DNA from: Terriglobia bacterium
Lineage (GTDB): Bacteria > Acidobacteriota > Terriglobia > 20CM-2-55-15
Direction: 5' to 3'
Assembly (NCBI GenBank): GCA_963664115.2
Contig: CAXWPJ010000011.1
Location: forward strand, 1 to 64,000
DNA length: 64,000 nucleotides
The notes under the pieces were generated by a model that made no database searches, had not been told where the DNA came from, and saw only the letters and a program-made list of their open reading frames with translations. Shown here piece after piece: positions 892-58,410 of this stretch. The translations under genes were made by a program, and so were the position numbers. Position 1 is the first letter of the stretch, and every line of letters begins with the position of its first letter.

Positions 892-1099
892 TCGCCACAG
901 TGTTCTTTCAGTTTTCGTAGAGCGTGCACTCTGGGCGCTCTGACGAGCCTACCTCCTCAGTTCGACTATCCGTTTTGGTTCGAATGCGACCTTCAACATT
1001 GCCGGATATACGCTGCGGGGCATAACTACAGTGATCTAGAACTCGATAGCAACGGAACATTCCGCAAATGCCAATTCTCAACGTCCGACAAGATGATCT

Positions 1100-1467
1100 A
1101 TGAAAGGGGATGTCAAGAGAAACAGCTCCCCGATGGCCGGCCAGGCGGACACTTTTGTCGTGACAGCCAGCCCCTCTACCGTTATGTGAAGCCCTGGTTC
1201 CGGCAATCCGCAGCGAAATCGTACATCTTTAAGACGGTCGATTCAGAAACTGAACAGCAGATGGGACGGCATGTGCCGACCATGGATCTATCTGAGCCTC
1301 GAAGGCTATCGCTGTTTCAGGTCGTGCGAGGGGGGATAGAGATTTAAAAGTGTCCTCTGGACGTATCCAGGGACCACATCTTGTGCAGATCCTCACCCTC
1401 GATCCTCAGTTGTTCCGACTCCGTCTAACGACTCAGTACGGCTCTACCGGTCACGGATCGAAACGGC
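1100..1467 (-). ncRNA. Predicted bridge/seek RNA in the downstream non-coding region of IS1111-A
   Basis: 370-bp non-coding region after the transposase; minus strand has ACAAGATG and TAAATC either side of a hairpin, matching the two target halves. Confidence 0.65.
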
Positions 1468-2532
1468 TTATGTTGTCATCCAGCTCAGTTTCTTTGGATC
1501 GAACGATTCTCCTTTCTTCCAAAGCGTCAGCACCAGCGCGGCGATCTTGCGGGCCAGAGTGACCCGCGCCATTTCCTCCCGCATCCCACGCATCTGGAGA
1601 CTCTCCAGATAAATCCGATACGGCTCGCTTTGTTTTCCCGATGCCGCGGCTGAGAAGAACACCGACTTCAATCGCCGGTTGCAGTTCGCATTCAATCCGC
1701 GCGTGGCCACCGGTTTCCTCCGTCGCACCACACGTCCACTCTGCATCTCATACTCCGCGCTCATGTGGGTCACCACACCCAGGCCACTGTAGCTCCAGAA
1801 CTGCGGTGTCGTGCGGAATCGGTACGGCGTGTCCACGATGGCGACGATCTGTGCCGCCCGAACCGGTCCCAGTTGTGGAATGGTCTCGAGCAGTTTCACC
1901 GCCTCATGGTGCCGGCCCTCCACTCGCACCGCTTTTCTGGATTGTTTCCGCAGCAACTGGACCTGGTCCAGTTCCGCATACAACCATCGGGCGCGCTGCC
2001 TCATCCCCGGCTCGGTCAGCTTCTCCAACCACTGTTCGCGCTGACTCGGCCGATAGACTCCGTCCTTCGGTGTCGGGATCCCCCGTCCCCGGTATATCGC
2101 TTTGATCCGCGACATCACCCGTTGCGTGTCCAACTGGAACGTGTCATAGGCCTGCACCAGTTGCTTCAATTCTCGCGTCGCTTCATGGCCGTGATACACC
2201 GAGCGCAACAGTCCCACCCGCAACAGCTCGGCCAGCTTCCGCGCATCCGGCTTATCCCCCTTCGACCCTTCTTGCATCCACTTGTTCTGTCGCGGATCGC
2301 ACACCACCACCTCGCTCACCCACGGCCGGATCACTTCCGATAACCAGCCCGCTTGCGTGGTCTCCTCCAACCCCACGTGCATCGGCCCACTCAATCCCTC
2401 CAGCAGCCGTGTGATACTCCCCGCCTCGGTTTCCACGATCGTTTCAAACACCAGTTTGCCGCTCCCGTCTCTCACCGCAACCACCGTCGTTGCCTGGTGC
2501 ACATCCATACCCATATACTTGTCTTGTTTCAT
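1468..2532 (-). CDS. IS110 family transposase/recombinase
   Basis: N-terminal GMDVH, E and DxxDA DEDD motifs; IPQLGP and YSGLG C-terminal motifs. Confidence 0.93.
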   Translation of the reverse strand: MKQDKYMGMDVHQATTVVAVRDGSGKLVFETIVETEAGSITRLLEGLSGPMHVGLEETTQAGWLSEVIRPWVSEVVVCDPRQNKWMQEGSKGDKPDARKLAELLRVGLLRSVYHGHEATRELKQLVQAYDTFQLDTQRVMSRIKAIYRGRGIPTPKDGVYRPSQREQWLEKLTEPGMRQRARWLYAELDQVQLLRKQSRKAVRVEGRHHEAVKLLETIPQLGPVRAAQIVAIVDTPYRFRTTPQFWSYSGLGVVTHMSAEYEMQSGRVVRRRKPVATRGLNANCNRRLKSVFFSAAASGKQSEPYRIYLESLQMRGMREEMARVTLARKIAALVLTLWKKGESFDPKKLSWMTT

Positions 2533-2804
2533 CTCGAACGCTCCTTTTCTGGGATCAACGCTGTATACGTTGATCAGGTTGTTGAGTGAGTCTTCTCTCA
2601 ACAACCCCCAGTCTAGGGGCGTCCTTTCATACTGCGATTTAACAGGACTTGAGAATGGATTTCGGAGATGGACAGGTCTGCCATCCGACTCTGTTGGGAT
2701 GGCATGATTCACGAGCCCATGCAGCGTTGACGTAGACAAAGATTGACATGCAGTACATTCTTCGTTTTCATGTGACCTACCTCAAGGGAATCGGAGGGAA
2801 AGAC

Positions 2805-3848
2805 ATGCTGGACCGAATTGCGACACGACGGAAACGGGTTAGAAGGAGGCTCCTCTTTGGTGGCCTTGCGATGGCTGGTGTCTTCTTTAGTTGGCCCGTC
2901 GTCGTGTCCGCTCACCATTCCGTTGCTGGTTACGTCGACGAAATCACTGAAGCGGTAGGCGAACTCGTGGCTTTAGAGTGGAGAAACCCACACATTAGGA
3001 TCGCTGTAAAAACGATGAATACCAACGGTGAGGAAGAGATTCGGATCATGCATGGAAATTCTATTTATAACTTGCAGCGCCAAGGTATAACCCAAGACTT
3101 GTTCACAATAGGCGAGCGTGTGAGGGTGGCCGGTAGGAGATCGAGTCGCGACGAGCTGGACTTTCTCGCCACCAACATTTTGTTTACAGATGGGCGTGAG
3201 GTATTGCTCTGGCCAACCCAGCCTCGATGGTCGGAAGAGATACTTGGCGGTCGAGATTTGTTGGCTGAACGTGGGCTGAACGGCGACGGTGAGGGAATTT
3301 TTCGCGTCTGGAGTGTTCCACGTGGACGTGCTCGTCGAGTAGTTACCCACCTGCCCTTTCAGGAATCCGCGATTGCTGCAAGGGAGTCATGGGACATGTT
3401 CGACAATTTCGCGATCCGTTGCGAACCGGAAGGCATGCCGAGAATCATGACCAATCCGCATCCTTTCGAGTTCATCGATCATCGGGATCAGATTACGCTG
3501 AGGACCGAGTTTTACGACATTGAGCGGACGATCCATCTGAATCGATCCGAGGCCCCTCCCAACGAACCCGCTTCAAGGCTGGGTTACTCGGTAGGAGAAT
3601 GGCAAGAGGGAACCCTGGTCGTTAGAACCAGTCGAATCAACTGGCCCTTCTTCGACACCATCGGTACGCCACAAAGCGAGGCAGTCGAAATCGTGGAACG
3701 GTTTACCGTGAGCAACGATCAGAGCCGCCTGGATTTCCAAATAACAGTAACTGACCCGCAAACCTTCACCGAACCCGCAACCATCGAGGGTTATTGGCTG
3801 GCTCTTGGAGATTCGATTCCGATCTACGATTGTCAAACGGATCAATGA
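2805..3848 (+). CDS. Secreted DUF6152-like protein
   Basis: Signal peptide then AHHS...WRNPH motif; long open ORF. Confidence 0.7.
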   Translation: MLDRIATRRKRVRRRLLFGGLAMAGVFFSWPVVVSAHHSVAGYVDEITEAVGELVALEWRNPHIRIAVKTMNTNGEEEIRIMHGNSIYNLQRQGITQDLFTIGERVRVAGRRSSRDELDFLATNILFTDGREVLLWPTQPRWSEEILGGRDLLAERGLNGDGEGIFRVWSVPRGRARRVVTHLPFQESAIAARESWDMFDNFAIRCEPEGMPRIMTNPHPFEFIDHRDQITLRTEFYDIERTIHLNRSEAPPNEPASRLGYSVGEWQEGTLVVRTSRINWPFFDTIGTPQSEAVEIVERFTVSNDQSRLDFQITVTDPQTFTEPATIEGYWLALGDSIPIYDCQTDQ

Positions 3849-3904: not shown

Positions 3905-3944
3905 TTCTCAAGGTCCGAGAAGATGATTTATCAGGACTTGAAAA
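3905..3944. repeat. 40-bp palindromic repeat copy
   Basis: ttctcaaggtccgagaagatgatttatcaggacttgaaaa. Confidence 0.9.
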
Positions 3945-4028: not shown

Positions 4029-5120
4029 TCAATCGGTCAGGAAGTGATACATGCCGAGGACGTTCTCGTCGACCCAATCGAAGTCCCCCCAGTGACTGTA
4101 CTCTTCCATCTTGATGTCTCGTTGCATGTCCTCCAGTGTCTGGCCCGAAGCGATGCCGGCGGCAACCTCGTCTCGGAGTGTTTCGAAGTACTCTCGCCAC
4201 GCTCTGACGTCTTCCCGGGTGCCCACCGGCCCGTGGCCTGTCGCAACGAACTCAAAGTCTGCCGCTAGCTCCTCCGTTTGACTGATAGCAGCCATCCACT
4301 CTTCGAACATCCCGAGTTCGTAGTCCATCTCCCTGTTCGGAAGCCGCCCGAACGAGACATAGTCGACGATCAACATCACGCTGTCGTCTGGAAAGGTGAT
4401 CATGCTCGAGTCCTTCGAGTGATTCATCTCGCCAACCCAGGTCAGGTTCACCCGTTTTCCGCCCAAGTTGATCTGAAACTCGTCTGTATAGGTGATATCA
4501 GGAGGACGCACAAAGCTAATTGGTCCGCGCACAACCTCCGCGCCGCTGAGCACGCCGTCCTCGTTCGCGTCGAATCCTTCGAACTGGCTCTGGCTCGAGC
4601 CGGCGAAGCGCTGGAGGTCCGCAGGTGTCTCACTTTCCTCAACCACTCCGTTGCCGTTGGTATCCAGCGCCGCCACGGGCTCGTACTGCCCAACGACTTG
4701 CGAGAGCGTGGTAGACGCTGGCGGCATCGCCAGGTACGAGAGCATGTTGGCATGACCCACAAACCGGGCCGTATCCGCGAAGACGTCCCCGCCGGAGGCA
4801 TGGTCCCAGTGGTAGTGGCTGTAGACGACGTATCTGACCGGGACCCCGAACCGAGCGGCGAACTCCTCCTTCAGCCACATCGAGAATTCAATGTTGATCG
4901 GATCCGCCAAGACGATGCCTTCCGGCGTGACCAGGAAGACGGTGCCGTGGTTGTTGCTCATAGCCCTGTAGACGCCGCCGGCGATGTGCTCAATCGTCCA
5001 TCGCGTTGCCTCGGTGGGCGACGAACGCCTCAACTCAGGCGTCTGGCCAAAGCCCCCTGACGCGAGCACCAGCGCTGCGACCAAAACCGCCAGAATCACG
5101 CTTGTCGTACTGCTACGCAT
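4029..5120 (-). CDS. Secreted metallo-beta-lactamase-fold hydrolase with inserted EF-hand-like loops
   Basis: SHYHWDH, HS and GHG motifs; DTNGNGVVEESE and DANEDGVLSGAE loops. Confidence 0.85.
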   Translation of the reverse strand: MRSSTTSVILAVLVAALVLASGGFGQTPELRRSSPTEATRWTIEHIAGGVYRAMSNNHGTVFLVTPEGIVLADPINIEFSMWLKEEFAARFGVPVRYVVYSHYHWDHASGGDVFADTARFVGHANMLSYLAMPPASTTLSQVVGQYEPVAALDTNGNGVVEESETPADLQRFAGSSQSQFEGFDANEDGVLSGAEVVRGPISFVRPPDITYTDEFQINLGGKRVNLTWVGEMNHSKDSSMITFPDDSVMLIVDYVSFGRLPNREMDYELGMFEEWMAAISQTEELAADFEFVATGHGPVGTREDVRAWREYFETLRDEVAAGIASGQTLEDMQRDIKMEEYSHWGDFDWVDENVLGMYHFLTD

Positions 5121-5445: not shown

Positions 5446-5485
5446 AGTTCAACGTCCGAGAAGATGATTTCTCAGGACTTGACCA
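5446..5485. repeat. 40-bp palindromic repeat copy with mismatched outer arms
   Basis: ttcaacgtccgagaagatgatttctcaggacttgacc. Confidence 0.9.
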
Positions 5486-5494: not shown

Positions 5495-5905
5495 ACGACA
5501 CCGTCAGCGCTCTGATAGTTGTCAGACCCCGCTTGTTCCGCTTATCCGCTCAACATGGGCAAGTTCACCAACTGGCTGGACGCGGGGCGGGTCGTGCTGA
5601 ACACGTTCCGGCTGTACGCCGAGTTCAACGGCACGCTGACGCCCATCACCGACAACGAGGCGTTGCGGGTGGCAACCGACGAGTACAACGCCATCGTGCG
5701 GGCAAGGGCATGAACGGTCAGCCCATACGCCGGACCACACCTTCGATCAGCTCACCATCGTCTGCTTCGCAGCCCAGTGGGTGGCGATGACGTCTGTCTG
5801 CTGACTGACAGGAAGCACATGTGCACTCTGGTGAAAAAGTATCCTCGATCGATCAACTTGCCAATGCCAGCAGAAGCTATTGCGGGTCAAGGGACGCCGC
5901 GTAAG
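5495..5905. repeat. 411-bp segment duplicated in inverted orientation at 33479-33889
   Basis: Direct comparison; near-identical ORF translations at both sites. Confidence 0.9.
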
Positions 5906-6923
5906 CAACAAGGTACAGCAAGTCTTCCGTACTGAGATCGGCAACGACCGGCGTCATCAGCTCAGACCACAGTCCCTTACGCGTGCCCTGCTGCATGTCA
6001 TACAACGCCCGCATGAGGTAACTGGCAGACCGACCCGCGATTCCAGGCAAGGGGCCGAGACCCTTCAGACCTGGACCGTGACAGATACTGCACTGCCCGG
6101 CCTCGGCCAATGCCCTACCCTTCTCGACCGCACCAACCGGAACATAAGCGATCCAGCCGGACCTCGGATTACGGTGCACCTCTGCGTGCTCGATATTCTC
6201 CGGGGTTTCAACGATACGCAGCCCGATCGGTTCAGTGCCCGACGTAGCAGCAGTAGCCTGGCACTCCGTGAAGATGTCGATTTCACAGTCCACTGGGAGA
6301 TAAATGCCCCCCAGCGTGTAGCTCTCGAATACGGTGTCGGTCTCCACGACCCGGACCCATGGCCTCCAAGGCTGTGCGCCGAAGTACTCGGCAGCAGCAA
6401 CGATCTCCTCTTCGGTCATGTTCTTCGCGATTTGGGTCATCGTCCGAGCGTTGTTCTTTCTCGGTTCTGAGCTATTCCTCAGATCGTTGCGAAAATCGTC
6501 CATCTGCTGGATGAAATACGAAACCGGTAAGCCCGCGACGCCAGCGTTCTCCGGGCGCCCCTGCCCATTGGGGTAGTGACAAAGCGCACACGCCCGCACG
6601 ACAGCGCCCTCCTCTGCCGTCCGACCGTTCGCAACGATGTCAGGCATCGGCGTTGGATGGTCGTCGGGATACCAGTCGGCGGGAGAGCGACCGCGAATCT
6701 GGGTGGCCGTGAACGTCCGGTCAGTATCGGGCAAGCTGAAGACCGTCCCATCCTCTTCCGGACGGGGAGGACGCGGCCCCAATGGGATGCCATAGGCCCA
6801 ATCAGGTCGCTCAGTCTGCACCAATGCTTGGCCGTTAGCCGATTGCTCGCTCTGGGCGCTCAATACGCCAACAACAACCACGGGCATCGCCAACAAGACA
6901 ACGAAACCTAGAATTTTCTGCAT
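5877..6923 (-). CDS. Di-heme cytochrome c4-like protein
   Basis: CALCH and CSICH heme motifs; signal peptide. Confidence 0.88.
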   Translation of the reverse strand: MQKILGFVVLLAMPVVVVGVLSAQSEQSANGQALVQTERPDWAYGIPLGPRPPRPEEDGTVFSLPDTDRTFTATQIRGRSPADWYPDDHPTPMPDIVANGRTAEEGAVVRACALCHYPNGQGRPENAGVAGLPVSYFIQQMDDFRNDLRNSSEPRKNNARTMTQIAKNMTEEEIVAAAEYFGAQPWRPWVRVVETDTVFESYTLGGIYLPVDCEIDIFTECQATAATSGTEPIGLRIVETPENIEHAEVHRNPRSGWIAYVPVGAVEKGRALAEAGQCSICHGPGLKGLGPLPGIAGRSASYLMRALYDMQQGTRKGLWSELMTPVVADLSTEDLLYLVAYAASLDPQ

Positions 6924-7504: not shown

Positions 7505-7544
7505 AGGTCAATGTCCGAGAAGATGATTTATCAGGACTTTACCG
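7505..7544. repeat. 40-bp palindromic repeat copy (GGTCAA arm type), next to a kinase-tail repeat at about 7551-7600
   Basis: ggtcaatgtccgagaagatgatttatcaggactttacc. Confidence 0.85.
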
Positions 7545-7643
7545 CGAAAATCAGAGAATCGGCACCCGTTCTTTTAGTTCTTCAAACCAACGTCAGGCTG
7601 TTTTATACGTTCACGTTCGCAGCTCCAACGCTCACCTCGAAGA

Positions 7644-7865
7644 TTACGAATTCTTCTGGTATGGAGATACCTTCGCCGCACTGTAATCAGAGCGATGCCC
7701 GCATTCAGATTCGCTGCAGGTGAGAAACAGCTGTGCCAGCGGCTCGAACGGACCGCGTCCTTCGGTTCGATCCAGACCGAACAAAATCGGCGAGTGGCAT
7801 TTCGCACAAAGCACACTCAAGTACCATCGCTTCTCAGTCGATTTTGGAAATCGGGAAAACTGCAT
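7644..7865 (-). CDS. Small putative Zn-ribbon protein, paralog of 43743-43994
   Basis: RWYLxVLCxxCxSPILF...LTCxxxECG..DYS shared by both copies. Confidence 0.7.
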   Translation of the reverse strand: MQFSRFPKSTEKRWYLSVLCAKCHSPILFGLDRTEGRGPFEPLAQLFLTCSESECGHRSDYSAAKVSPYQKNS

Positions 7866-7890
7866 AAGCACACGGTTTTGGAGGATCGCG

Positions 7891-8142
7891 CAATTCTCAA
7901 CGTCCGACAAGATGATTTCTCAGGACTTGAGAATGATTTTCACCTCTTTTGCCGGCCCCGCCAGCTGCAGCGGCTTGTTAGGCCCCAAACGTGGACCTCG
8001 ACCACCCGTGGAGCCTGGAGCGCCAGCGGAAGGCCGTCCACTGCATCCCGTGTTAGGCAATATTATTTTGCCCAAACAAGTTCATTGAGAATCGATACTC
8101 TGAGTAGGGCATGGCTCCATCTGTCATATTCCGAGTATCCCC
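7891..8142 (-). pseudogene. Inverted duplicate of the GNAT unit 3' end (55272-55523), cut off by IS256
   Basis: 252 bp near-identical; one end at the repeat, the other at the IS256 inverted repeat. Confidence 0.88.
7894..7933. repeat. 40-bp palindromic repeat copy
   Basis: ttctcaacgtccgacaagatgatttctcaggacttgagaa. Confidence 0.92.
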
Positions 8143-17461: not shown

Positions 17462-17501
17462 GGCTCAAGTCCTGAGAAATCATCTTGTCGGACGTTGAGA
17501 A
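17462..17501. repeat. 40-bp palindromic repeat copy
   Basis: ctcaagtcctgagaaatcatcttgtcggacgttgagaa. Confidence 0.92.
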
Positions 17502-18704: not shown

Positions 18705-18769
18705 ACTCGACAAAGCGCAGCAACTCCGAGCGCCCTTTGTGAGGGTACTGTCAACTTGGGCCACGACAA

Positions 18770-41369: not shown

Positions 41370-41409
41370 TTCTCAATGTCCGAAAAGATGATTTATCAGG
41401 CGTTGAGAA
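41370..41409. repeat. 40-bp palindromic repeat copy
   Basis: ttctcaatgtccgaaaagatgatttatcaggcgttgagaa. Confidence 0.88.
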
Positions 41410-45957: not shown

Positions 45958-46155
45958 TCTGATTCCTTCCTTAGTTCTCCCTGCTCAGCTGCAGATTGTG
46001 AGAAATCCTAACATTTGCTCGCAAAAAGTTGTGTAAGAATTCCTGGTGCCTTGGTATCTCTCACTTTCCGGATCGACACCGGACTGTCGCATTGTAGGTC
46101 TGCTGGTCCGCATGGTGTAGCATTCCCGTAGTGTTTGCGTTTATTGGGAGGAACG

Positions 46156-46614
46156 ATGAAGAAACGAATGACGGTCGCAGGCTTATGTTTGCTGGGTGCG
46201 GTTCTGGCCGGGACGGTTCCGGCGCAGGCCGCGCAAGATGCACCTCTGGAGCCTTGCGGCCCGAATCTGGGAACCGATATCAAGAACGTGAGCGGCCACT
46301 CGCGCTGCTTCGAGCTCAGGACGTATACGGTCGGAGAGGGCAGCACGATCGATCAATTGCACACACGCTTTCGCGAGCGAACGACGGCTCTTTTCCGAAA
46401 GCACGGTATGACGATCGTCGGCTACTGGCAGCCGACCACGCAGCCCAACACCTTGATCTACGTGCTGGCATACGCGGATCGCGCTGCGCGGGACGCTGCA
46501 TGGGACGCGTTTAGAAGCGATCCGGACTGGATCGAGACGCGCGAGGAAATGCCCGTCAATGTCCAAGTCGAGAACGTCTTCATGAGCGCGACCGACTACT
46601 CACCCATTAAATAG
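46156..46614 (+). CDS. NIPSNAP family protein
   Basis: FELRTY, AWDAFRSDPDW, TDYSP. Confidence 0.88.
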   Translation: MKKRMTVAGLCLLGAVLAGTVPAQAAQDAPLEPCGPNLGTDIKNVSGHSRCFELRTYTVGEGSTIDQLHTRFRERTTALFRKHGMTIVGYWQPTTQPNTLIYVLAYADRAARDAAWDAFRSDPDWIETREEMPVNVQVENVFMSATDYSPIK

Positions 46615-46822
46615 CTGCCTCAGCCCTCCGGGGCGGTGGGACCGCCCCGGAGGAATCACCTGTAAAAGGAACGGACACTTCAGCCGCAACGCACTCGCCA
46701 GGCCACAATGTCGCATGAAGTGTCCGTCCCCTTTCCCCGCATGCAAACATGACGCTTATACGCGTACGGAGCGTATGTGTTGAAATACCGGTTGAAAGCG
46801 TCGTCGACCCATCAAACCATCT

Positions 46823-48061
46823 ATGAACGGACACAAATCACAACCGGGCTTCGGAGAGTTCGTCGCCCTGATGGCGATGATGATGTCACTCGCGGCGCTG
46901 TCGATCGACATGATGCTCCCCGCGCTGCCTGAGATCGGGCGTGATCTCGGTGTCCAGGGCCCCAACGACACCCAGTTGGTCATATCGCTTCTTTTCCTCG
47001 GCTTCGCAGTGGGCCAGATATTCTACGGCCCGCTATCGGACAACACAGGCCGCAAATCTACTGTGTATTTGGGGTTCGGACTGGTTGTTGTCGGCTCCGT
47101 TTGCGCGTTGTTCGCTCCAAGCTTTCCCATAATGCTTTTGGGACGATTCCTTCAAGGCCTTGGCGTGGCGGGCCCGCGCACGATCGTACTGGCCCTGGTC
47201 CGAGACCGCTACGAGGGCCGGACGATGGCCCGGGTCATGTCCTTCGTGATGGCTGTGTTCATTATGGCGCCCGTCGTCGCACCGGCCATGGGACAGGCCA
47301 TCATGGTTCTGGCGGGGTGGCGGGCGATTTTTGGCTTCTATCTCGGCCTGGTGCTTGTCGTTTCCCTCTGGTTTGGACTGCGACAGCCGGAAACACTGGC
47401 CACGGACCGTCGAATCCCGTTCCGGAGGGAGCGAATCGTGCGTGCCGTGCGCGAAGTCCTGGGCAACAGGATTTCCTTTGGGTACACCCTCGCAGCCGGA
47501 CTTATTTTTGGTTCGTTCATCGGTTACCTGAACTCGTCGCAACAGATCTTCCAGGAACAATACGGTCTGGGCCCGTTGTTTCCCTTGTACTTCGGCATTG
47601 GTGCGCTCTCGCTAGGTTGCGCGTCATTCCTGAACGCGACGCTCGTGATGCGTCACGGGATGCGGCCGCTGGTTCTCCGCGCACTGAAATCCATGTCGGG
47701 TATTTCCGTTGTATTTCTGGCCATCGCCTATGCCCTGGCCGGTCACCCACCGTTGTGGCTGTTTATGGGCTACATGCTGATCGTTTTTTTCTGTTCGGGT
47801 ATTCTCTTCGGAAACCTGAACGCTCTTGCGATGGCGCCCATGGGGCACATCGCCGGAACGGCGGCCGCAGTGATCGGATCGCTCTCCACCTTCCTTTCGC
47901 TCGTGCTCGGCACGGCCGTCGGTCAGGCGTACAACGGAACGGTTCTGCCTCTGGTCCTCGGGTTTGCGCTTTTCGGTGTGGCGTCACTCGCCGTCGTGCA
48001 CTGGATCGAACGTGAAACTTCAGAACCTGAAAGCACCGAAACAGTTTCGATCGAAGACTGA
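46823..48061 (+). CDS. Bcr/CflA-family MFS efflux transporter
   Basis: SIDMMLPALP, GPLSDxxGRK, multiple transmembrane helices. Confidence 0.92.
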   Translation: MNGHKSQPGFGEFVALMAMMMSLAALSIDMMLPALPEIGRDLGVQGPNDTQLVISLLFLGFAVGQIFYGPLSDNTGRKSTVYLGFGLVVVGSVCALFAPSFPIMLLGRFLQGLGVAGPRTIVLALVRDRYEGRTMARVMSFVMAVFIMAPVVAPAMGQAIMVLAGWRAIFGFYLGLVLVVSLWFGLRQPETLATDRRIPFRRERIVRAVREVLGNRISFGYTLAAGLIFGSFIGYLNSSQQIFQEQYGLGPLFPLYFGIGALSLGCASFLNATLVMRHGMRPLVLRALKSMSGISVVFLAIAYALAGHPPLWLFMGYMLIVFFCSGILFGNLNALAMAPMGHIAGTAAAVIGSLSTFLSLVLGTAVGQAYNGTVLPLVLGFALFGVASLAVVHWIERETSEPESTETVSIED

Positions 48062-48086
48062 TAAACTAAAGCGCGTTCGGGTTGCA

Positions 48087-49628
48087 ATGCGGAGCTTCCC
48101 GATCCCAGCAATGAAGCACGACCGATCGCATCGCCGGTTCGTCATCCCAGTGGCCCTTACCGCCCTGCTGGGCTTGGGACTCCTGGCCTCAGAAATCCCC
48201 GCTCTGCTTCAGACAAGCGCACCTCTACCTTTTGTTGTCTACTTCGACGACGGCCCCTTCCCCACGACCAGATCCATCCGCGATGACGCCACGTTTGTAG
48301 AACTGACAGGTCTCATACGACGCATGGGACTTCCATACACCGATGCGACCGCTGCGGGAACGTTTACGATTCGCGGTCCGGCCGGCACATTGGTCGCGAC
48401 GCGCAATGAAGAAACTCTGACGATAGACGGACGGTCACTGCAACTGGAGCGCGCGCCATACACCGACGGTGCCCGCTGGTACGTGCCCCTGGATTTCCTT
48501 ACAGGGGCTCTGGAACAGATCACCGGTGTGAACTTCCGGTATGAACCCGGCGCGCCGCGCATGCTGGCCGGCACTCTCACCGCCACGCGACTCGACATCA
48601 GCGCCGTCGGAAACGAAGGCGAGACACGGCTGACAATACGCTCCGACGTCAGCGTAAATATTCGAGTGCAACAGATTCCCGAGGAAAATCGAGTGATCCT
48701 GGCAATCGATCACGCACCCATCAGACCGTCCGCGGAAACGCTGGAGTACCGCGATGGTTCTATACGATCCGTGCGGTTTGACGATGCCGACGGGCGTTCT
48801 AAGATCCTCGTCGAAACGACGCCGCAGGTCGCGAGCGTCCGACTGACACCCACGGAGGAGAACCGCACCTTTTTTGTGGATTTCGTTCCCGAAAGCGCCC
48901 CGGCCGAAACAGTGGCGACACCACCGGCGCCGGAGCGGGATGGACTGGCCGGGGCCGGTGGCGTGCGGGTGATCGTCATCGATCCGGGCCACGGTGGCCT
49001 GGATGCCGGCGCCGGGGCATCGGGCACGCTTGAAAAAGATCTGACTCTCGCGCTGGCGCGGCGTATCCGCACCCGACTGCAAACCGGGCTCGATACCACC
49101 GTCATTCTCACCCGGGACTCGGATATCGAATTAAGCGGGGAGACACGATCCGCGATCGCCAACAACAACGCAGCCGATCTGCTGATCAGCCTGCACATCG
49201 GTTTTTCTCGAGACCCCAGCGAGACCGGCGCATCGCTGTTTGTCATGAAGGCAATGCCCTCCCCTGGAATCGAAGCCACCGACGGTATTAACGATGCCGC
49301 GTCCGGGCGAGCGCTGTTCCAGCCCTGGTACTGGACCTATGAGTCCCATCTGGCACGCAGCCGGGTCCTGGGAGAAATCTTTCAACGAAGGTTGGCGGCG
49401 GCGATTCCCGGTTGGGAGTTTTCGCTCCGGGAAGCTCCAATCGGTGTCCTCAGGAGCGCAGCCATGCCCGCGATACTCGTCGAGCTGGGTAACGCGAACA
49501 ATCGGGCGAACCTCAAGGCACTCACAAGCCCGGCGCTCCAGGACCGTCTGATCGAGGCGATCGTGCGGTCGGTCACCGAGTTTGGCGCCATTGGAGCCAG
49601 CGAAGCCCTTGACGATGGAGGTGCTTGA
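48087..49628 (+). CDS. N-acetylmuramoyl-L-alanine amidase (Amidase_3)
   Basis: IDPGHGG, EKD, ISLH, ILVELG. Confidence 0.9.
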   Translation: MRSFPIPAMKHDRSHRRFVIPVALTALLGLGLLASEIPALLQTSAPLPFVVYFDDGPFPTTRSIRDDATFVELTGLIRRMGLPYTDATAAGTFTIRGPAGTLVATRNEETLTIDGRSLQLERAPYTDGARWYVPLDFLTGALEQITGVNFRYEPGAPRMLAGTLTATRLDISAVGNEGETRLTIRSDVSVNIRVQQIPEENRVILAIDHAPIRPSAETLEYRDGSIRSVRFDDADGRSKILVETTPQVASVRLTPTEENRTFFVDFVPESAPAETVATPPAPERDGLAGAGGVRVIVIDPGHGGLDAGAGASGTLEKDLTLALARRIRTRLQTGLDTTVILTRDSDIELSGETRSAIANNNAADLLISLHIGFSRDPSETGASLFVMKAMPSPGIEATDGINDAASGRALFQPWYWTYESHLARSRVLGEIFQRRLAAAIPGWEFSLREAPIGVLRSAAMPAILVELGNANNRANLKALTSPALQDRLIEAIVRSVTEFGAIGASEALDDGGA

Positions 49629-50288
49629 GTGACACGCAAGCTCTCTATCAGCCTCCTGTTGATGGTCGCCGTCGCCGCTCTGTCCGCGCTTTACTTCTTA
49701 ATTGTAGCGGGAGGCGTGGGACAGAATCCGGAACCGGAAAATGACCCGGTATTCGAGGAAACCGTCGCACCCCTCTTCGCGCCCACCGACCCGGCAATCG
49801 AGGCAAGGTTGTTCTTCCCGGGTAACAACAACGACGTGCTATTGCGGACCCGGGACGTAACGATCTTCGCTTCGGTGGAGATAGAAAACCGCGTCCGCCA
49901 GATCGTAGATCAATTAATCCGGGGTGGGGACGACCCGGATCTATTCTACAGACTGCCCTCAGACACTCGACTTAACGAAGTGTTCGTAGCTGATAGTGGC
50001 GTCGTGTATCTGGACTTCAACAGCGCGATCTCGGACAACCATCCCGGGGGTGTGCTTCCTGAGCAGGCGACGATATATTCCATCGTCAACTCGCTCACGT
50101 ACAACCTTGATGCAATCGATCGCGTGAAGATTCTGATCGGTGGCACCGAAAAGGAGACGCTGGCCGGACACTGCCTGCTTCTGTTACCGTTGGAAATGGA
50201 TCTTTCGATCAGCGATATGGCACCCCCAGCGGCACTCTCCACGACCCCCCAGACGGAACGACCTCGCGGGAACGCCAATGAGAATTGA
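49629..50288 (+). CDS. GerMN-domain protein
   Basis: [17 protein letters not shown]; typical position after the amidase. Confidence 0.85.
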
Positions 50289-51006
50289 CGGCCGAAACAC
50301 TGACGATCTGCGTCCTGTTCAGCTGACGCCGGACTTCATTCCACACGCGGAGGGTTCCGTGTTGATCGAAGTCGGCCGGACCCGTGTCATCTGTACGGCG
50401 AGCGTTGAGGAGTCCGTGCCCCTCTTTATGCGCGGTAGTAACAAAGGATGGATTACCGCGGAATACTCGATGTTGCCACGCGCGACCGAGAGCCGGACGC
50501 CAAGAGAGGCGTCGCTCGGCCGCAAGTCAGGCCGGACCCAGGAGATCCAGCGCCTCATCGGCAGGTCACTTCGGACCGCCGCCAACCTGGATTTGTTGGG
50601 GGAGCGGACGATCTGGGTCGATTGTGATGTCATCGAGGCCGACGGAGGAACGCGGACAGCTTCGATAACGGGCGCTTTCGTCGCCATGGTCCAGGCCATG
50701 GACAAGCTGGTCGACAAGGGTGCATTGAACACCGTGCCCATCCGGTCCAGTATCGCCGCGGTCAGCGTGGGCATCGTTGATGGTGTTCCGATGCTGGACC
50801 TGAACTACGAAGAAGACGCCAACGCCGAAGTAGACTTCAACGTTGTGATGACCGATCAGCGGGAGTTTGTGGAACTGCAGGGAACCGCGGAACGGCAACC
50901 TTTCTCCAAAACACGCCTGGACGCGCTCCTCGATCTGGCAGAGTCCGGAATAGCACAACTGATTGACACGCAACAACAGGCGCTGGGAGCGATGCGCAAA
51001 CGGTGA
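50278..51006 (+). CDS. rph: Ribonuclease PH
   Basis: [25 protein letters not shown]. Confidence 0.97.
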
Positions 51007-51596
51007 GGTCCCTGGTCGTTGCCAGTAAGAATCCCGGCAAGGCACACGAGATCGCGACCGTTCTCAGTTCCCTTCATGACTGGAAAGTTGAATCGCTGCC
51101 TGAGGGCATCCCCGACATAGACGAAACTGGAACCACGTTCGTCGAAAATGCGGTTTTGAAAGCGGAGCACTACAGTCGCTCAATCGAGGGCTTGTGTGTG
51201 GCCGACGATTCCGGACTGATCGTGGACGCACTCGGGGGCCGGCCCGGTATCTATTCGGCTCGATACGCGCCGACCGATGACGCGCGTAATCAAAGGCTGC
51301 TCGAAGAATTGGAGCGTATCCCTCCAGGCAGGCGTGACGCCCGCTTTGTCTGCGCCCTGGCGTTGGCCCGAAAGGGACGATCGATCTGGACGGTCGAGGA
51401 ACGTGTCGAAGGACAAATCGCTCCCGCACTTGCCGGAGAATTCGGTTTTGGCTATGACCCACTGTTCTGGGTCCCGGAATTCGAGCAGACGACGGGCCAA
51501 CTGAAACCTGAGATAAAGAACCAGATCAGCCACCGCGGGGTGGCGCTGCGCCGGCTTCAGGAGTACCTCGAAGCCTATCTCGAGACCCGGGAGTGA
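51003..51596 (+). CDS. rdgB: Non-canonical purine NTP pyrophosphatase
   Basis: ADDSGL, PGIYSAR, FGYDP, SHRG. Confidence 0.95.
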
Positions 51597-51710
51597 TTAT
51601 TTTACATCCTCGAAAACGATCAATTGCTAACGTAGTAGGGGACGGACCGTTCTAAAGAGAGTGGTCGAAGAATCGCGATTAAGTTTTAGCATACCTTCAG
51701 GAGGTCGACG

Positions 51711-52349
51711 ATGGTGACTTCAGTGTTGATGCTATTGACGCTTCTGGGTCCGATGGAACAGGGACCCAGAGAACTCACGGTCCCGGATGAGTCGCAGATC
51801 AAACCACCACTGGTCGTATCCGAAGGTACCGTCATCCCGGTGAGCCTGATTAACGAGATTTCAACCAAGAACGCCGAAGCCGGCAACGGAGTCTATGCTC
51901 AGACGATTTTTCCGGTCACGGTAAACAACGAAATCGTGATTCCCGTAGGCAGCTACGCCCGCGGCCGAATCGTAAACGCAACGCGTCCCGGACGCGTGAC
52001 GGGAAAAGCCGAGCTGACGATCAACTTCCATACGATTATCCTGCCCAGCGGTTTGACGCTGCCGGTCTTCGGAAGCCTGGGTGGCGTCGGTGGTGTCGCC
52101 GAAAGACAGGGAGAAGCGACGGTCAGTGGTGACTCCACGAAAGGCAAAGACGTGGGTACCGTCGCCACAACCGCAGGCACGGGCGCGGTCATCGGGGCGA
52201 TCAGCGGTGGCGGCAAAGGCGTGGCCATTGGAGCCGGGGCCGGCGCGGCGGCTGGAATCGCTCAAGTTCTTCTGAGCCGCGGAGAGGATCTTACCCTGCC
52301 CCGCGGTACGACAATCGAGGTGGTACTCGACCGTCCGCTGGAGCCCTGA
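51711..52349 (+). CDS. TrbI/VirB10-like domain protein with glycine zipper
   Basis: GTVIPVSL, IPVGS, Gly/Ala-rich helices. Confidence 0.65.
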   Translation: MVTSVLMLLTLLGPMEQGPRELTVPDESQIKPPLVVSEGTVIPVSLINEISTKNAEAGNGVYAQTIFPVTVNNEIVIPVGSYARGRIVNATRPGRVTGKAELTINFHTIILPSGLTLPVFGSLGGVGGVAERQGEATVSGDSTKGKDVGTVATTAGTGAVIGAISGGGKGVAIGAGAGAAAGIAQVLLSRGEDLTLPRGTTIEVVLDRPLEP

Positions 52350-52413
52350 ACAGATTTGCAACCCCCCGCTCTTTCCATTACCTTTAATTGACAGGGCCCA
52401 TGGAGGGCCGTCA

Positions 52414-52488
52414 CGGGGCGTAGCGTAGTCCGGTCAGCGCGCCTGCTTTGGGAGCAGGAGGCCGGGAGTTCGAATCTCCCCGCCCCGA
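52414..52488 (+). tRNA. tRNA-Pro(TGG), CCA not encoded
   Basis: Acceptor stem CGGGGCG/CGCCCCG; anticodon loop TTTGGGA; GTTCGAATC T-loop. Confidence 0.93.
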
Positions 52489-53328: not shown

Positions 53329-54772
53329 GAGTTATTGTCAAAAGTGGTGTTTAGGAGATTGATTCAAGCGGCGGCCTGATCGACTTGTGTCGCTTCGACA
53401 CCATCGTTGAATTTCACTCCGATGATTACCTTGCTCAGATCATCGAATCCTCGTAATCGTCGCCAATTGTTCTCAGCGCACTGGCCCAGTTTGAACATCA
53501 TGTGCAGCATGCCATCCCGTGCCCAGTTTGAACATCATGTGCAGCATGCCATCAGCCGTCGCGTTCGGGGGCTTCTCTTCCAGTGCAACCTCTGGATCGC
53601 TTCGTTCGGTGTCGAATGGTGGCAAAGGTCGACTCAATGGGATTCGTCGTTCTGATGCTCTGCCAGTGCTTGGCCGGAAAGTCGTAAAAGGCCAGCAGTT
53701 CCTCTCTGTCTTTCTGCAGGCAGAGTGTGGCTTTCGGATACTTCGGTTCATAGGTTTCAATGAACAAGTCGAATGCCTTCTCGGCGTCTGCCTTCGTCTC
53801 GGCCTGCCAGATCGAGTGCAGGGCCTGTTTCGCCTTCGCCTGGACCGACTTGGGCAGGCAGTTGAGGACGTTCATGACTTTGTGCATCCAGCAACGTTGT
53901 TGACGTGTCTCGGGATAGATTTCCTCCAGTGCGGCCCAGAACCCCATCGCACCGTCACCGATGGCCAACTTCGGAACATTCATCCCACGGGACTTCAGCT
54001 TCAACAAGACCTCGCGCCAACTCTGTGTCGATTCCCGTACACCGTCTTCGATCGCCAGGAAACGCTTCTCTCCGCGTTCATTCACGCCGATCACGACCAA
54101 TGCACACAACTTGGTTTGTTCCGCCCGAAGTCCGCTGTAGATGCCGTCGGCCCAGACATAGACCCAGCGATCTGCATCCAAACGCTCCTCGCATCCGAGG
54201 CGGTACTGTTCGCCCCAAACCTGTTTCAACCGCGATACCGTGCTCGCCGACAGACCCTGCGCCTGGGGACCGACAAGAACTTTTAGGGCCTCACCCATCT
54301 CGCCGCTGGAAACGCCTTTCAAATACAACCACGGCACCGCTGCTTCCAGCGACTTCGTCTTCCGAATGTACGGTGGTACCAGGGCCGATCGGAACGTCAC
54401 AGCTTCGCCCGTCTTGGCACGGACCTTCGGGATTTGGACTGTTACCGGACCCAATCCCGTCTGCAGTTCGCGTTCCGGCAGATAACCGTTGCGTACCACC
54501 CCGGCGTTTCCTGTCTCAGTTCGCCGGCCACCGTGCTGGGATAGCAGCTCTGCCAATTCGGCTTCCACTGCGCGTTGGATCAGTTGCTGTGCCCCAACTC
54601 GTAGTAGTTCTGTTACTGGATCCTCAATCGTTTCTCGACCTTCCGGTCCATTCACGTTACTCTTGCTCACAGTGGCGTATCTCCTATGGTTGCTTTGAAG
54701 TTTTGTCACAACAAATCAACCAGATACGCCGCTCTTATTCAATCCCTCAAACACCAGATTCGGTTATAACTC
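53329..54772 (-). mobile_element. IS256 copy 4, disrupted by a net 59-bp composite insertion
   Basis: 1444 bp versus 1385 bp; ORF diverges after KRSRGC. Confidence 0.92.
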
Positions 54773-54806
54773 AGTCCTGAGAAATCATCTTGTCGGAAGT
54801 TGAGAA
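54773..54806. repeat. Palindromic repeat copy clipped by IS256
   Basis: agtcctgagaaatcatcttgtcggaagttgagaa. Confidence 0.88.
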
Positions 54807-54857: not shown

Positions 54858-55361
54858 ATGAACTGCGAAACGATCAGACGAGCGTACAACTCTGATTCCC
54901 CACGGATAATTTCGCTCATAGCCGACGTCTATCGAGAGTACGGCGACGAGATCTATCTAGAAGGAGCGGACAAGGATCTAGTTGATATTGAAGGATATTA
55001 CCGACAGGTAAGCGGGGATTTTGTCATATTGGAAAGGAATGACGAAATCGCAGGAACGCACGCCGTACTCCCGCTTGACCTAGCGAACCGCGTCATAACC
55101 TTCAGACGGCTGTACCTTCGGCAGGAGTTGCGTGGGTCGGGTTGCGGAAAGCGGTTGATGAAATGGGCAATCGATTGGTCGATGCGCGAAGGCTATCACT
55201 CAGTAGAGTTTTGGTCTGACATACGATTCCAACGGGCACACAGGTTCTTTCAGCAATTAGGTTTCACGAAAGGGGATACTCGGAATATGACAGATGGAGC
55301 CATGCCCTACTCAGAGTATCGATTCTCAATGAACTTGTTTGGGCAAAATAATATTGCCTAA
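54858..55361 (+). CDS. GNAT N-acetyltransferase
   Basis: RRLYL..ELRGSGCGK motif A; AHRFF..LGF. Confidence 0.88.
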   Translation: MNCETIRRAYNSDSPRIISLIADVYREYGDEIYLEGADKDLVDIEGYYRQVSGDFVILERNDEIAGTHAVLPLDLANRVITFRRLYLRQELRGSGCGKRLMKWAIDWSMREGYHSVEFWSDIRFQRAHRFFQQLGFTKGDTRNMTDGAMPYSEYRFSMNLFGQNNIA

Positions 55362-55480: not shown

Positions 55481-55520
55481 TTCTCAAGTCCTGAGAAATC
55501 ATCTTCTCGGACGTTGAGAA
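55481..55520. repeat. 40-bp palindromic repeat, consensus copy
   Basis: ttctcaagtcctgagaaatcatcttctcggacgttgagaa. Confidence 0.95.
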
Positions 55521-55567
55521 TTGGATTTCACCACTTTTCGGGACCAATCACCACAGCTAGTGACCAT

Positions 55568-55930
55568 ATGAGCCTATCCAGCGCGACCCCTATTCTTAGA
55601 ATCTTCGACGAAGCAAAAGCGAAGGAATTCTATGGCTCTTACTTGGGGTTTTCCGTGGACTGGGAGCATCGGTTTGGTGATGAGTTCCCTCTGTACATGC
55701 AACTGTCCAAAGATAACTGCGTCCTTCATCTTTCCGAACACCACGGCGACGGGACGCCAGGGAGCGCGATTCGCATCGAAACTGATGACGTTGGTGCTTT
55801 GAATCAAGAACTACTGGACAAGGCCTATCGATACGTGAAGCCAAGCGTCGAAGAGAAACCGTGGAACACAAAAGAGATGACGATCACCGATCCGTTTGGC
55901 AATCGATTGATCTTTTTCGAGAACGAATAG
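55568..55930 (+). CDS. Glyoxalase/bleomycin-resistance superfamily protein
   Basis: EFY..YLGF.VDWEHRF, HLSEHHGD, DPFGNRL. Confidence 0.88.
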   Translation: MSLSSATPILRIFDEAKAKEFYGSYLGFSVDWEHRFGDEFPLYMQLSKDNCVLHLSEHHGDGTPGSAIRIETDDVGALNQELLDKAYRYVKPSVEEKPWNTKEMTITDPFGNRLIFFENE

Positions 55931-55942: not shown

Positions 55943-55982
55943 TTCTCAAGTCCTGAGAAATCATCTTCTCGGACGTTGAACT
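55943..55982. repeat. 40-bp palindromic repeat copy
   Basis: ttctcaagtcctgagaaatcatcttctcggacgttgaa. Confidence 0.93.
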
Positions 55983-56005
55983 CCAGACTGGTACTCTCTT
56001 CAGTA

Positions 56006-56917
56006 ATGCCTACCGGTAAACCTTGGCTACCTGAGCATATCGTGATGCCAGATGCGGCCGTTCGTCTGATCGAAAGCCAATTCCCGGAGCTTCGACCTGC
56101 GCATATCCAACTTCTAGGTGAGGGTTGGGACAATACGGCCTACGTAGTGAACAGGACTTGGGTTTTCCGGTTTCCTCGCCGAGAGATAGCGGTGGAACTG
56201 CTGCAGACGGAAACTCGCGTCCTTCCTCGAATTGCAGCTCAGTTGCCTTTCCCTATCCCAGTACCAAGATGGGTTGGTAAGCCAACACAAGAGTATGATT
56301 GGCCGTTTGCGGGCTATCGCTTTCTTCCAGGCACCACGGCACTGAGTGTTGGATTGACGCGAGAGCAGAGGAAGGAACTTGCTGCTCCCTTAGCGAATTT
56401 CTTAGCAACTCTACATGCCATTGATCCGGGAGATCTGGAAATTCCGGGAGATAAATTTGGCCGAGCTGACATGGGAAAACGTATTCCACAGTTGCTCTCA
56501 AGTCTTCTGACGATTCGAGGAAAGGGATTGGTTGCTGACGTTTCACCTTGGGAACGGATCGTTGAACAGATGTCATCGGACTTTCAACCGCGGTTGAACA
56601 CATTGTCACACGACGATTTTTCAGCGGAGCATATCCTTGTGGACAACTTTGGACTGCCAAGCGGCGTGATTGACTGGGGCGACATCCACCTAGGAAGCCC
56701 CAGTATGGATTTGGCTATTGCGTTCGGTTTTCTGCCACCCGAGGGTCGCGAAGTATTTTGGGATAGCTATGGAGCCGTCGAAAAGCCGATCCAAATCATG
56801 GCGCGATTTCGTGCTCTCCACGCCGCCGTCATTGGTGTCCTATATGGCGATGATATTGGCGACACTGCTCTCCTGCGCGAGAGCTTATTGGGGATGGACT
56901 TCGCGATAGAGTCGTGA
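56006..56917 (+). CDS. Aminoglycoside phosphotransferase (APH) family kinase
   Basis: GEGWDN, VFRFPR, HDDFSAEHIL, IDWGD. Confidence 0.88.
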   Translation: MPTGKPWLPEHIVMPDAAVRLIESQFPELRPAHIQLLGEGWDNTAYVVNRTWVFRFPRREIAVELLQTETRVLPRIAAQLPFPIPVPRWVGKPTQEYDWPFAGYRFLPGTTALSVGLTREQRKELAAPLANFLATLHAIDPGDLEIPGDKFGRADMGKRIPQLLSSLLTIRGKGLVADVSPWERIVEQMSSDFQPRLNTLSHDDFSAEHILVDNFGLPSGVIDWGDIHLGSPSMDLAIAFGFLPPEGREVFWDSYGAVEKPIQIMARFRALHAAVIGVLYGDDIGDTALLRESLLGMDFAIES

Positions 56918-56959
56918 CCGAGACAATTCCTAGAACTAGACTACGGGAAGTCAGTCCGC

Positions 56960-58344
56960 GAGTTATTGTCAAAAGTGGTGTTTAGGAGATTGATTCAAGC
57001 GGCGGCCTGATCGACTTGTGTCGCTTCGACACCATCGTTGAATTTCACTCCGATGATTACCTTGCTCAGATCATCGAATCCTCGTAATCGTCGCCAATTG
57101 TTCTCAGCGCACTGGCCCAGTTTGAACATCATGTGCAGCATGCCATCCCGTGTCAGGCAACCTCTGGATCGCTTCGTTCGGTGTCGAATGGTGGCAAAGG
57201 TCGACTCAATGGGATTCGTCGTTCTGATGCTCTGCCAGTGCTTGGCCGGAAAGTCGTAAAAGGCCAGCAGTTCCTCTCTGTCTTTCTGCAGGCAGAGTGT
57301 GGCTTTCGGATACTTCGGTTCATAGGTTTCAATGAACAAGTCGAATGCCTTCTCGGCGTCTGCCTTCGTCTCGGCCTGCCAGATCGAGTGCAGGGCCTGT
57401 TTCGCCTTCGCCTGGACCGACTTGGGCAGGCAGTTGAGGACGTTCATGACTTTGTGCATCCAGCAACGTTGTTGACGTGTCTCGGGATAGATTTCCTCCA
57501 GTGCGGCCCAGAACCCCATCGCACCGTCACCGATGGCCAACTTCGGAACATTCATCCCACGGGACTTCAGCTTCAACAAGACCTCGCGCCAACTCTGTGT
57601 CGATTCCCGTACACCGTCTTCGATCGCCAGGAAACGCTTCTCTCCGCGTTCATTCACGCCGATCACGACCAATGCACACAACTTGGTTTGTTCCGCCCGA
57701 AGTCCGCTGTAGATGCCGTCGGCCCAGACATAGACCCAGCGATCTGCATCCAAACGCTCCTCGCATCCGAGGCGGTACTGTTCGCCCCAAACCTGTTTCA
57801 ACCGCGATACCGTGCTCGCCGACAGACCCTGCGCCTGGGGACCGACAAGAACTTTTAGGGCCTCACCCATCTCGCCGCTGGAAACGCCTTTCAAATACAA
57901 CCACGGCACCGCTGCTTCCAGCGACTTCGTCTTCCGAATGTACGGTGGTACCAGGGCCGATCGGAACGTCACAGCTTCGCCCGTCTTGGCACGGACCTTC
58001 GGGATTTGGACTGTTACCGGACCCAATCCCGTCTGCAGTTCGCGTTCCGGCAGATAACCGTTGCGTACCACCCCGGCGTTTCCTGTCTCAGTTCGCCGGC
58101 CACCGTGCTGGGATAGCAGCTCTGCCAATTCGGCTTCCACTGCGCGTTGGATCAGTTGCTGTGCCCCAACTCGTAGTAGTTCTGTTACTGGATCCTCAAT
58201 CGTTTCTCGACCTTCCGGTCCATTCACGTTACTCTTGCTCACAGTGGCGTATCTCCTATGGTTGCTTTGAAGTTTTGTCACAACAAATCAACCAGATACG
58301 CCGCTCTTATTCAATCCCTCAAACACCAGATTCGGTTATAACTC
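56960..58344 (-). mobile_element. IS256 copy 5 with 9-bp target duplication TCAGTCCGC
   Basis: Duplication at 56951-56959 and 58345-58353. Confidence 0.95.
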
Positions 58345-58370
58345 TCAGTCCGCACGGTAGATGATCTAAC

Positions 58371-58410
58371 CGCTCAAGTCCTGAGAAATCATCTTCTCGG
58401 ACGTTGAGAA
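58371..58410. repeat. 40-bp palindromic repeat copy
   Basis: ctcaagtcctgagaaatcatcttctcggacgttgagaa. Confidence 0.93.

Follow-up and report, generated by a model that had tools for sequence, protein, structure and literature searches.

The 64,000-nucleotide stretch analysed here (the window), contig C11 of the 4.9-Mb genome of a Terriglobia bacterium (the source genome, G000), is dotted with a 40-nt bulged palindromic repeat that lies between small gene units. Our comparisons show that the repeat belongs to a real, lineage-specific and cassette-like system: gene units have been exchanged at it, also between species, its copies follow a rule of polarity, and it is associated with a family of kinase genes. 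The reading we prefer, with a probability of roughly 0.4, is that the repeat is a polar exchange site, of the double-stranded kind used by tyrosine recombinases, that the host XerC/XerD would cut in trans.

The 40-nt consensus matched the window seven times at up to 3 mismatches and never in 100 shuffled versions. A profile scan found 13 intact 34-bp cores, 3 copies split by insertion sequences (IS) of the IS110 family and 1 half copy, the 17 or so copies that an earlier reading of the sequence alone (the sequence-only reading) had listed. Across G000 the consensus scan returned 164 copies at up to 8 mismatches (reversed genome, 0) and the profile scan 176 (control, 0). Of these, 174 lie outside called genes; gene calls were heuristic, and the counts of units and gene orientations given below rest on them as well. 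The copies are clustered, 155 of the 176 having a neighbour within 10 kb against a random mean of 87, and their surroundings are rich in IS (17.5% versus 5.7%). The core block at 44542..52488 (amidase, GerMN, rph, rdgB and tRNA-Pro), which is conserved in all four of four congeners and served as a negative control, contains no copy in the profile scan, in agreement with its absence from the housekeeping block at 46-52 kb that had been noted before.

The repeat is restricted to two genera of one Terriglobia family. A strict pattern detected it in 7 of 61 relatives and a looser one in 6 of 9 chosen relatives; it was found in none of 400 other genomes of a phylum sample and in no viral contig of the viral collection searched. 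Eleven contigs bear it in a metagenome search, all nine named records bearing it are Terriglobia metagenome-assembled genomes, and pieces of the window recur at 96-100% identity in a run labelled sponge metagenome. Rfam at gathering score assigned no family to any copy. No published description of the repeat was found in our literature searches, most subscription papers being outside the searched set.

The site core consists of two 14-bp arms around a 6-bp spacer, TCAAGTCCTGANAA - 6 nt - TTSTCGGACNTTGA, 34 bp in all. Two classes of spacer can be told apart, the major class M (ATCATC; in some lineages the variants ATCCGG and ATCCTC) and the minor class m (ACGACA, ACGACC or ACGATC), and the spacer half beside the left arm is less variable than the half beside the right arm. 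The single motif type described earlier holds for most copies in the window, which are M; those at 19647 and 39759/41258 belong to the second class, which is always inverted. In G000 and the fetched parts of the related genomes G002 and G003, 161 of 168 M-M neighbours within 10 kb are co-oriented and 74 of 74 M-m neighbours are inverted. Twenty-three inverted M-m doublets were found, with linkers mostly of 24-25 or 114 nt. Read in the direction of the array, m is followed by a promoter-like stretch, conserved behind most m sites (by consensus match only), and then by the start of a Ser/Thr kinase gene; a -35-like hexamer often stands 7-8 nt past both M and reversed m. The relation of site orientation to GC skew is weak (24 versus 13 clusters, with 15 flat).

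A bulged stem had been proposed for the repeat, and the folding part of that proposal stands: the consensus copy at 55470-55535 folds well (z -5.7), a copy at 7885-7945 reaches only z -1.6, and the M-m doublet folds as one long stem (z -6.0). The conserved unpaired G does not, as the 3' unpaired base in 293 sites is G in 178, A in 57, C in 55 and T in 3. The 11:22 stem pair is formed in only 113 of the 293 sites, and none of 13 stem pairs shows covariation, Watson-Crick pairing being what independent columns would give. What is conserved is sequence and not structure. A protein site on double-stranded DNA fits this lack of covariation better than the single-strand hairpin of the sequence-only reading does, and we infer that the site is recognised in double-stranded form.

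Exchange at the site was followed through segment ends. In the array regions of G000, low-copy duplicated segments have 136 non-edge ends (a count that includes reciprocal and three-copy rows), of which 37 fall on a site in both copies, 3 on a site in one copy and 36 at an IS; the chance level is set by the 1.7% of bases marked as site. Among cross-species segments at least 90% identical, 28 of 250 ends lie on a site in both genomes, with 1.6% of bases marked, and 27 on a site in one. Five distinct units have sites at both ends. One is the 1289-bp unit of the window carrying a DUF6152 gene (2748..3848, +; Pfam and comparison) between two M sites, whose second copy at G000:C2:264297-265623 is flanked by different neighbours left and right; another is a 389-bp unit (7542..7896, -) that holds only a kinase tail and recurs, with sites at both ends and other neighbours, at G000:C10:252476-252898. 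A 740-bp unit occurs in three contexts, on C2 and C12 of G000 and in G001. The unit with a GNAT gene (54858..55361, +; Pfam) is 97-98% identical in G001 with M at both ends, in a genome whose core genes are only 76-82% identical. Its 3' end, found at 55272-55523, also forms the left flank (7931-8142) of the M site at 7897; at 55272-55523 itself a different unit follows. Similarly, the 462-bp unit of a glyoxalase gene (55514..55930, +; Pfam) has a different upstream neighbour at G000:C6:27120, and at G000:C12:559039 the right flank of the M site at 55946..55979 (+) is found again, joined to another left flank. Since segments end on the site far above chance and most ends lie elsewhere, the site is a preferred and not the sole breakpoint. 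The claim that units are exchanged at the repeat is therefore borne out; two others are not, for only 33 of 83 IS-free units are single-gene units, and only 145 of 225 genes (64%) are co-oriented, leaving 36% antisense.

All of 50 flank-sharing site pairs join like spacer classes. The position of the crossover was mapped on 240 non-redundant M sites; the percentages that follow are those at the first threshold. Variants at left-arm positions 4, 5 and 10 differ in 2-9% of left-sharing and in 25-35% of right-sharing pairs, and right-arm position 28 differs in 23% of left-sharing and 7% of right-sharing pairs. Because positions 4, 5 and 10 track the left flank and position 28 the right, the crossover would be bracketed between 10 and 28, that is, centrally, which argues against a cut at the foot of the site as in integron attC sites.

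The gene family at the sites joins Pkinase to PD40 and encodes a Ser/Thr kinase. A kinase tail stands directly upstream of 127 of 271 M sites. In G000, an intact site lies no more than 90 nt from 64 of 123 kinase tails, in all 64 cases in the same orientation, only 5 of the 123 tails end a frame longer than 800 aa, and 28 of 53 kinase heads have a site upstream; intact site-kinase-site units are present at locus L015. As the head and tail counts and the whole unit show, the ancestral unit is site-promoter-kinase-site, and most present units are cargo between kinase stumps. Kinases and kinase tails of the other genera and families examined have no such site. In other genera, represented by G021 (L222), G013 (L224) and G007 (L221), tandem kinases are instead parted by palindromes with a GTAG foot that resemble repetitive extragenic palindromes (REPs) or REP doublets forming hairpins (REPINs).

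The site is also a target of mobile elements, of four IS types in all. IS110a has 7 copies in G000, each of them placed at the AT of an M spacer, all 9 copies of IS110b adjoin site arms at their visible end or ends, with insertion in the left arm, and the right ends of both carry guide-like matches to the site. Elements of the IS30 family make 2-bp target duplications; the IS30-type element here sits at the spacer centre in 6 of 6 full copies, one of which has non-matching halves, that is, halves exchanged between sites. For the IS91 type, 6 of the 8 G000 cases examined fall inside a clear site or no more than 35 nt from one, and the other 2 stand in the same relation to degenerate remnants. 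At C1:92926, C1:107675, C2:196451, C12:35350, C12:158198, C12:486987, C12:569262 and C3:2939 of G000, three elements of this type (each a tyrosine recombinase plus a Y2 transposase, and each with a 4-nt target of its own) land at the equivalent spacer/arm boundary of m, of M or of a further palindrome, 'X', described below. IS91-linked recombinases are among the subjects treated in 10.1101/542381. IS256-family elements, with more than 50 copies in G000, show no preference for the site. The site is not itself an IS terminal repeat as far as the array ends of IS110, IS30, IS91 and IS256 go, which are distinct sequences that have inserted into the site or close to it; target duplications outside m..M units were not searched. 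What looked like a third arm, 'Y', found joined to either of the two arms across the spacer, proved to be the ends of the IS30-type element. The four site-targeting IS types could do part of the shuffling. Together with the second spacer class and the kinase-gene origin of the units, they go beyond what the sequence-only reading had described.

That reading had expected a dedicated recombinase linked to the arrays. None was found in recombinase searches of G000 and the relatives compared. A tyrosine recombinase between two m sites on C5 of G000 is absent from G002 and G003, and neither profile nor motif search yielded a further one in G000. An integron integrase (IntI) above the TIGR02249 cut-off is present in G000, G001 and G002; the fetched stretches of G003 hold 70 sites, and that genome has no IntI above the cut-off. 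The G000 integrase has an ordinary integron of its own at G000:C9:710000-716000 (L012:5400-10700), with intI followed by about five genes and canonical attC sites on the same strand, and this array is 195 kb from the nearest site. Genes for Y1 transposases like the REP-associated tyrosine transposases (RAYT) are unlinked: 0 of 15 Y1 loci in G001-G004 have a site within 1.5 kb, and near the G000 pair there is a single degenerate site, 340 bp from a RAYT-like gene. Two RAYT-like Y1 genes at G000:C10:489900-493300 flank what we take to be an AbiE-type toxin-antitoxin pair beside a tRNA remnant. The IS91-type recombinase/Y2 pair is absent from G003 and abundant in the site-poor G001 and G029. Serine resolvases and recombinases, judged by position, showed no evident tie to the arrays among the matches listed. 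Three weak recombinase-profile matches were obtained in array loci.

Among the tyrosine recombinases compared (12 of 12 G003 and 19 of 27 G002 matches, with a Pfam check), XerC and XerD are the only ones common to G000, G002 and G003 at more than 75% identity. The host dif, ACGTCGCATAA-TGAGTA-TTATGTCAAGT, is single-copy and conserved; it lies at G000:C2:108118-108145 (-), 42 kb from xerD. The XerD arm of dif is near-invariant across Terriglobia, and second dif-like sites exist in a few genomes (G010, G017, G479 and others). The repeat and the host dif have the same AA-6-TT geometry. Set against the host XerC arm, the right arm agrees at as many as 8 of 11 positions, a level reached by 0.7% of AA-ending 11-mers, and the two arms match the XerC arm of the G040 dif at means of 8.1 and 7.0 of 11, the right arm at up to 9.

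The ancestral unit, seen intact, is made up of a site, a promoter, a Ser/Thr kinase-PD40 gene, its stop codon and M; in many cases an inverted m stands at its head. If Xer does act on the site, the following course can be proposed. A unit flanked by direct M sites would be excised and would then enter any other M site, the spacers being identical, which would give rise to arrays of one orientation within genomic islands. Loss of the kinase middle, or its replacement by cargo, would follow and leave head and tail stumps. A bolder version, which we regard as rather doubtful, is that a cassette system of integron scale arose from a kinase family and a site with two XerC-type arms, at which Xer trades units among about 175 chromosomal sites and between species; XerC would then perhaps act without XerD or FtsK control.

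Several observations weigh against the Xer proposal. Neither arm satisfies the XerD box TTATGTHAASY (means of 5.1-5.4 of 11), for which 93 of 151 genomes of the class gave a match. At the fifth inner position each arm carries C, in V. cholerae the least favourable base for a XerD arm (PMC9226527). XerC and XerD occur in all relatives and the site in only two genera. As for the exchange itself, 60 of the 136 ends in G000 are at neither site nor IS and 195 of the 250 cross-species ends are away from sites. Among three copies of window genes found at high identity in other species, two have no sites flanking them, namely those of a metallo-beta-lactamase-fold cargo gene (4029..5120, -; 96% identical in G002) and of a cytochrome c cargo gene (5877..6923, -; 98% identical in G004), both assigned by Pfam. 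Positions 11, 22, 23 and 29 track neither flank, position 5 is unlinked at the strictest threshold, and the counts of flank-sharing pairs are not independent of one another. The arms of the 1289-bp unit itself both show differences; like the unlinked positions, these are not what a clean spacer crossover predicts. Finally, no circle or single-site junction could be demonstrated, the public runs being contigs only and the joints short and repeat-driven.

The strongest competitor, somewhat unlikely in our view, dispenses with a site-specific enzyme and leaves the shuffling to site-targeting IS and homologous recombination. IS copies in different sites would recombine, scarless excision of IS110 would leave a hybrid site joined at the spacer, and short-homology recombination between repeats and kinase stumps would do the rest. 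The insertion preferences of IS110a, IS110b and the IS30-type element, including the one copy with exchanged halves, are as expected from this, IS110 elements excise scarlessly (PMC11208160), and a fixed IS orientation would preserve site polarity. It would also account for the central position of the crossovers, for the arm positions that track neither flank and for the many breakpoints away from sites. It leaves unexplained the conservation of the site across species and genera, the two spacer classes with their strict orientation rule, and why IS evolved to target the site at all, since parasites presumably follow a functional site that was there before them. A selfish hairpin similar to REPs or to bacterial interspersed mosaic elements (BIMEs), spread by an HUH transposase of the RAYT type, with the doublets as BIMEs and flank exchange as a by-product, is unlikely. 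The extragenic position (2 of 176 copies in called genes), the bulged stem, the 23 doublets and the degenerate site near a RAYT-like gene agree with it, as do the targeting by IS110, known for E. coli REP, and the resemblance of the left arm to an E. coli REP arm (PMC11208160). However, a GTAG or GGAG foot occurs in only 15 of 333 sites, the Y1 loci of G001-G004 are unlinked to sites, the stem does not covary, the copies move with kinase stumps and promoter and not alone, and they cluster in IS-rich islands.

Slightly less likely again is that the site is the operator of a regulator, located at the promoter of the kinase genes and copied along passively while that family was amplified in tandem and then decayed. 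The spacing of 7-8 nt between the sites and the -35-like hexamer is in keeping with an operator, and the symmetric variable positions 11 and 22, without covariation, would suit a dimeric protein on double-stranded DNA; yet the two arms segregate with different flanks, the site also bounds cargo units that have no homology to the kinase, and an operator has no need of spacer classes tied to orientation. Improbable, too, is a dedicated recombinase from outside the searched families or lost from the assemblies, possibly acting on the folded M-m doublet. The narrow taxonomic range of the site and the long doublet stem would suit such an enzyme, and the recombinase between two m sites and the three weak profile matches offer candidates; against them stand the absence of the former from G002 and G003, the lack of a further tyrosine recombinase in G000, the serine recombinases listed without evident array tie, the IS91-type pair missing from G003, and the absence of the site from viral contigs. 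The least probable of all, and very much so, is a non-canonical attC used by the integron integrase of the genome. IntI in three genomes and the two extrahelical bases of the fold speak for it. The attC core RYYYAAC..GTTRRRY occurs in 0 of 333 sites (AAC..GTT in 18), the G000 integron has its own distant attC array, G003 has sites without an IntI above the cut-off, and the crossover appears to be central. The earlier statements that the repeat is neither attC nor a GTAG-type REP are thus upheld by the same counts.

In the window, most sites at the left end are on the minus strand. The first M site is split by IS110a (1099..2636, -; PF01548/PF02371), its right arm and 3' spacer at 1078..1097 (-) and its left arm at 2637..2652 (-); an intact allele with the same flanks is at G000:C6:45057. 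Further M sites found by profile scan follow at 3908..3941, 5449..5482, 7508..7541, with a kinase tail stump (7551-7598) before it, and 7897..7930, the last also supported by flank comparison (all -). The M site at 17465..17498 (+) precedes amidohydrolase and 2H-phosphoesterase cargo (17649..19538, +; Pfam), where 18779-18826 and 19532-19579 are stumps of kinase tails. Next is a doublet (19589..19680) of M at 19589-19622 (+), a 24-nt linker and inverted m at 19647-19680 (-). A candidate sigma70-like promoter, TTGCCA-17-TATCGT (19689..19717, +; consensus match only), lies 8 nt behind m and faces the array; its two hexamers have the spacing usual for sigma70 promoters. A half site, the start of a left arm (21072..21088, +), directly adjoins at its 3' end a group II intron (21089..23078, -; Pfam and comparison). 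The 3' end in question is that of the intron, which carries a reverse transcriptase (RT)/maturase gene (21207-22529) and is nested; an intron end in the left arm, as at 21088, is found once more on C12. The introns at 21089-23400 are nested in that the RT-bearing intron, present in four copies, lies inside an outer intron whose 3' end is in the site arm, and another intron has its 5' end against a left arm at G000:C5:39680.

A kinase tail stump and an M-type site (24286-24319) with the variant spacer ATTACC occupy 24229..24319 (+). At 24330-24360 is 'X', a second palindrome of the 11-6-11 type, which accompanies many M sites at an outward distance of 10-14 nt and, in G004 and G007, also follows kinases; as a repeat in its own right it was rejected, being not significant genome-wide (right arm, 15 matches versus 22 in the control). 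At 28949..30580 (-) an IS110a copy (28970-30507) separates the right arm (28949-28968) and left arm (30508-30523) of an M site, with a kinase tail at 30533-30580. The m site at 39759..41258 has its left arm split by IS110b (about 39769-41236; Pfam) and forms a doublet with a 114-nt linker with the M site at 41373..41406 (-). The M sites of the right end are all on the plus strand: 54770..54803, its left end clipped by an IS256; 55484..55517, the exact consensus in both scans; that at 55946; and 58374..58407. The site at 55946 is followed by an APH-family phosphotransferase cargo gene (55976..56917, +; Pfam) and then by an IS256 (56960-58331); the other IS256-family copies of the window are at 8156-9530, 10149-11520, 12462-13833, 53328-54759 and 62151-63522. 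Positions 1-9528 and 55471-64000 share large blocks with G000:C6:1-46165 in two arrangements, which have an IS256 and an M site as breakpoints and represent alternative haplotypes or a rearranged duplication. A multi-copy element of about 250-340 bp at 7030-7370 has many congener copies and loose read ends at 7323-7372.

To our knowledge, cassette shuffling in bacteria rests on IntI/attC or on XerCD and the pdif sites of plasmids. A third kind, chromosomal, with its origin in a family of signalling kinases and escaping the definitions of attC and REP, would reveal how systems of this sort come about and would explain rapid exchange of accessory genes in this group. If driven by Xer, it would mean that Xer acts on many ectopic sites without a XerD box; if IS and homologous recombination do the work, it would be a lesser example, and even so an unusual one, of exchange at a common repeat being driven by parasites. 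The site with its four targeting IS kinds is also a natural test set for target choice by RNA-guided IS110 and by IS91 and IS30.

Of the known systems, integron arrays, including sedentary integrons and clusters of attC sites lacking integrases (CALIN), share with the repeat co-oriented small units, a site just behind the stop codon, a head promoter, and IS110 and group II introns as parasites. Unlike attC, with its features as defined in PMC10127599, the repeat has no RYYYAAC/GTTRRRY ends, conserved extrahelical G, covariation or linked IntI; right-arm position 28 tracks the right flank, contrary to a crossover at the G|TT foot, and the share of antisense genes is high. REP/BIME/REPIN families with TnpA-REP (RAYT) resemble it in being short extragenic bulged palindromes with inverted doublets of fixed linker that IS110 targets. 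They differ in the GTAG-type tetranucleotide foot that belongs to the REP definition (PMC8266576) and in a linked RAYT; the repeat is island-bound and spreads with flanking DNA, and its clustering and the site-free core block do not agree with dispersal through the intergenic space of the core genome. The attP of CTX has two inverted core sites able to fold together. Integrative mobile elements exploiting Xer (IMEX), such as TLC and CTX, have attP sites with degenerate Xer arms and so, like the repeat as we read it, would place host Xer on sites deviating from dif; unlike them, the repeat comes with no phage and no XafT-like activator that we identified, and its sites recombine with each other and not with dif. 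That host Xer acts on such deviating sites is described in PMC9226527.

A further parallel is with the dif modules (pdif) of Acinetobacter plasmids, served by XerC/XerD. In these, polar sites of like spacer exchange with one another, a direct pair leads to excision, modules are bounded by inverted pairs, and dedicated IS are present (PMC13141974; PMC10132070). The repeat likewise consists of polar arm-6-arm sites between accessory modules, with inverted pairs bounding modules and IS dedicated to the site, and its exchange joins like spacers with a crossover within the site. In contrast to pdif, it is chromosomal, has about 175 sites that are mostly direct and not alternating (only M-m neighbours alternate), and its units derive from one kinase gene family. 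With AA-6-TT geometry and XerC-like arms and no XerD-like arm, the site appears to work like a dif module and yet not to be pdif.

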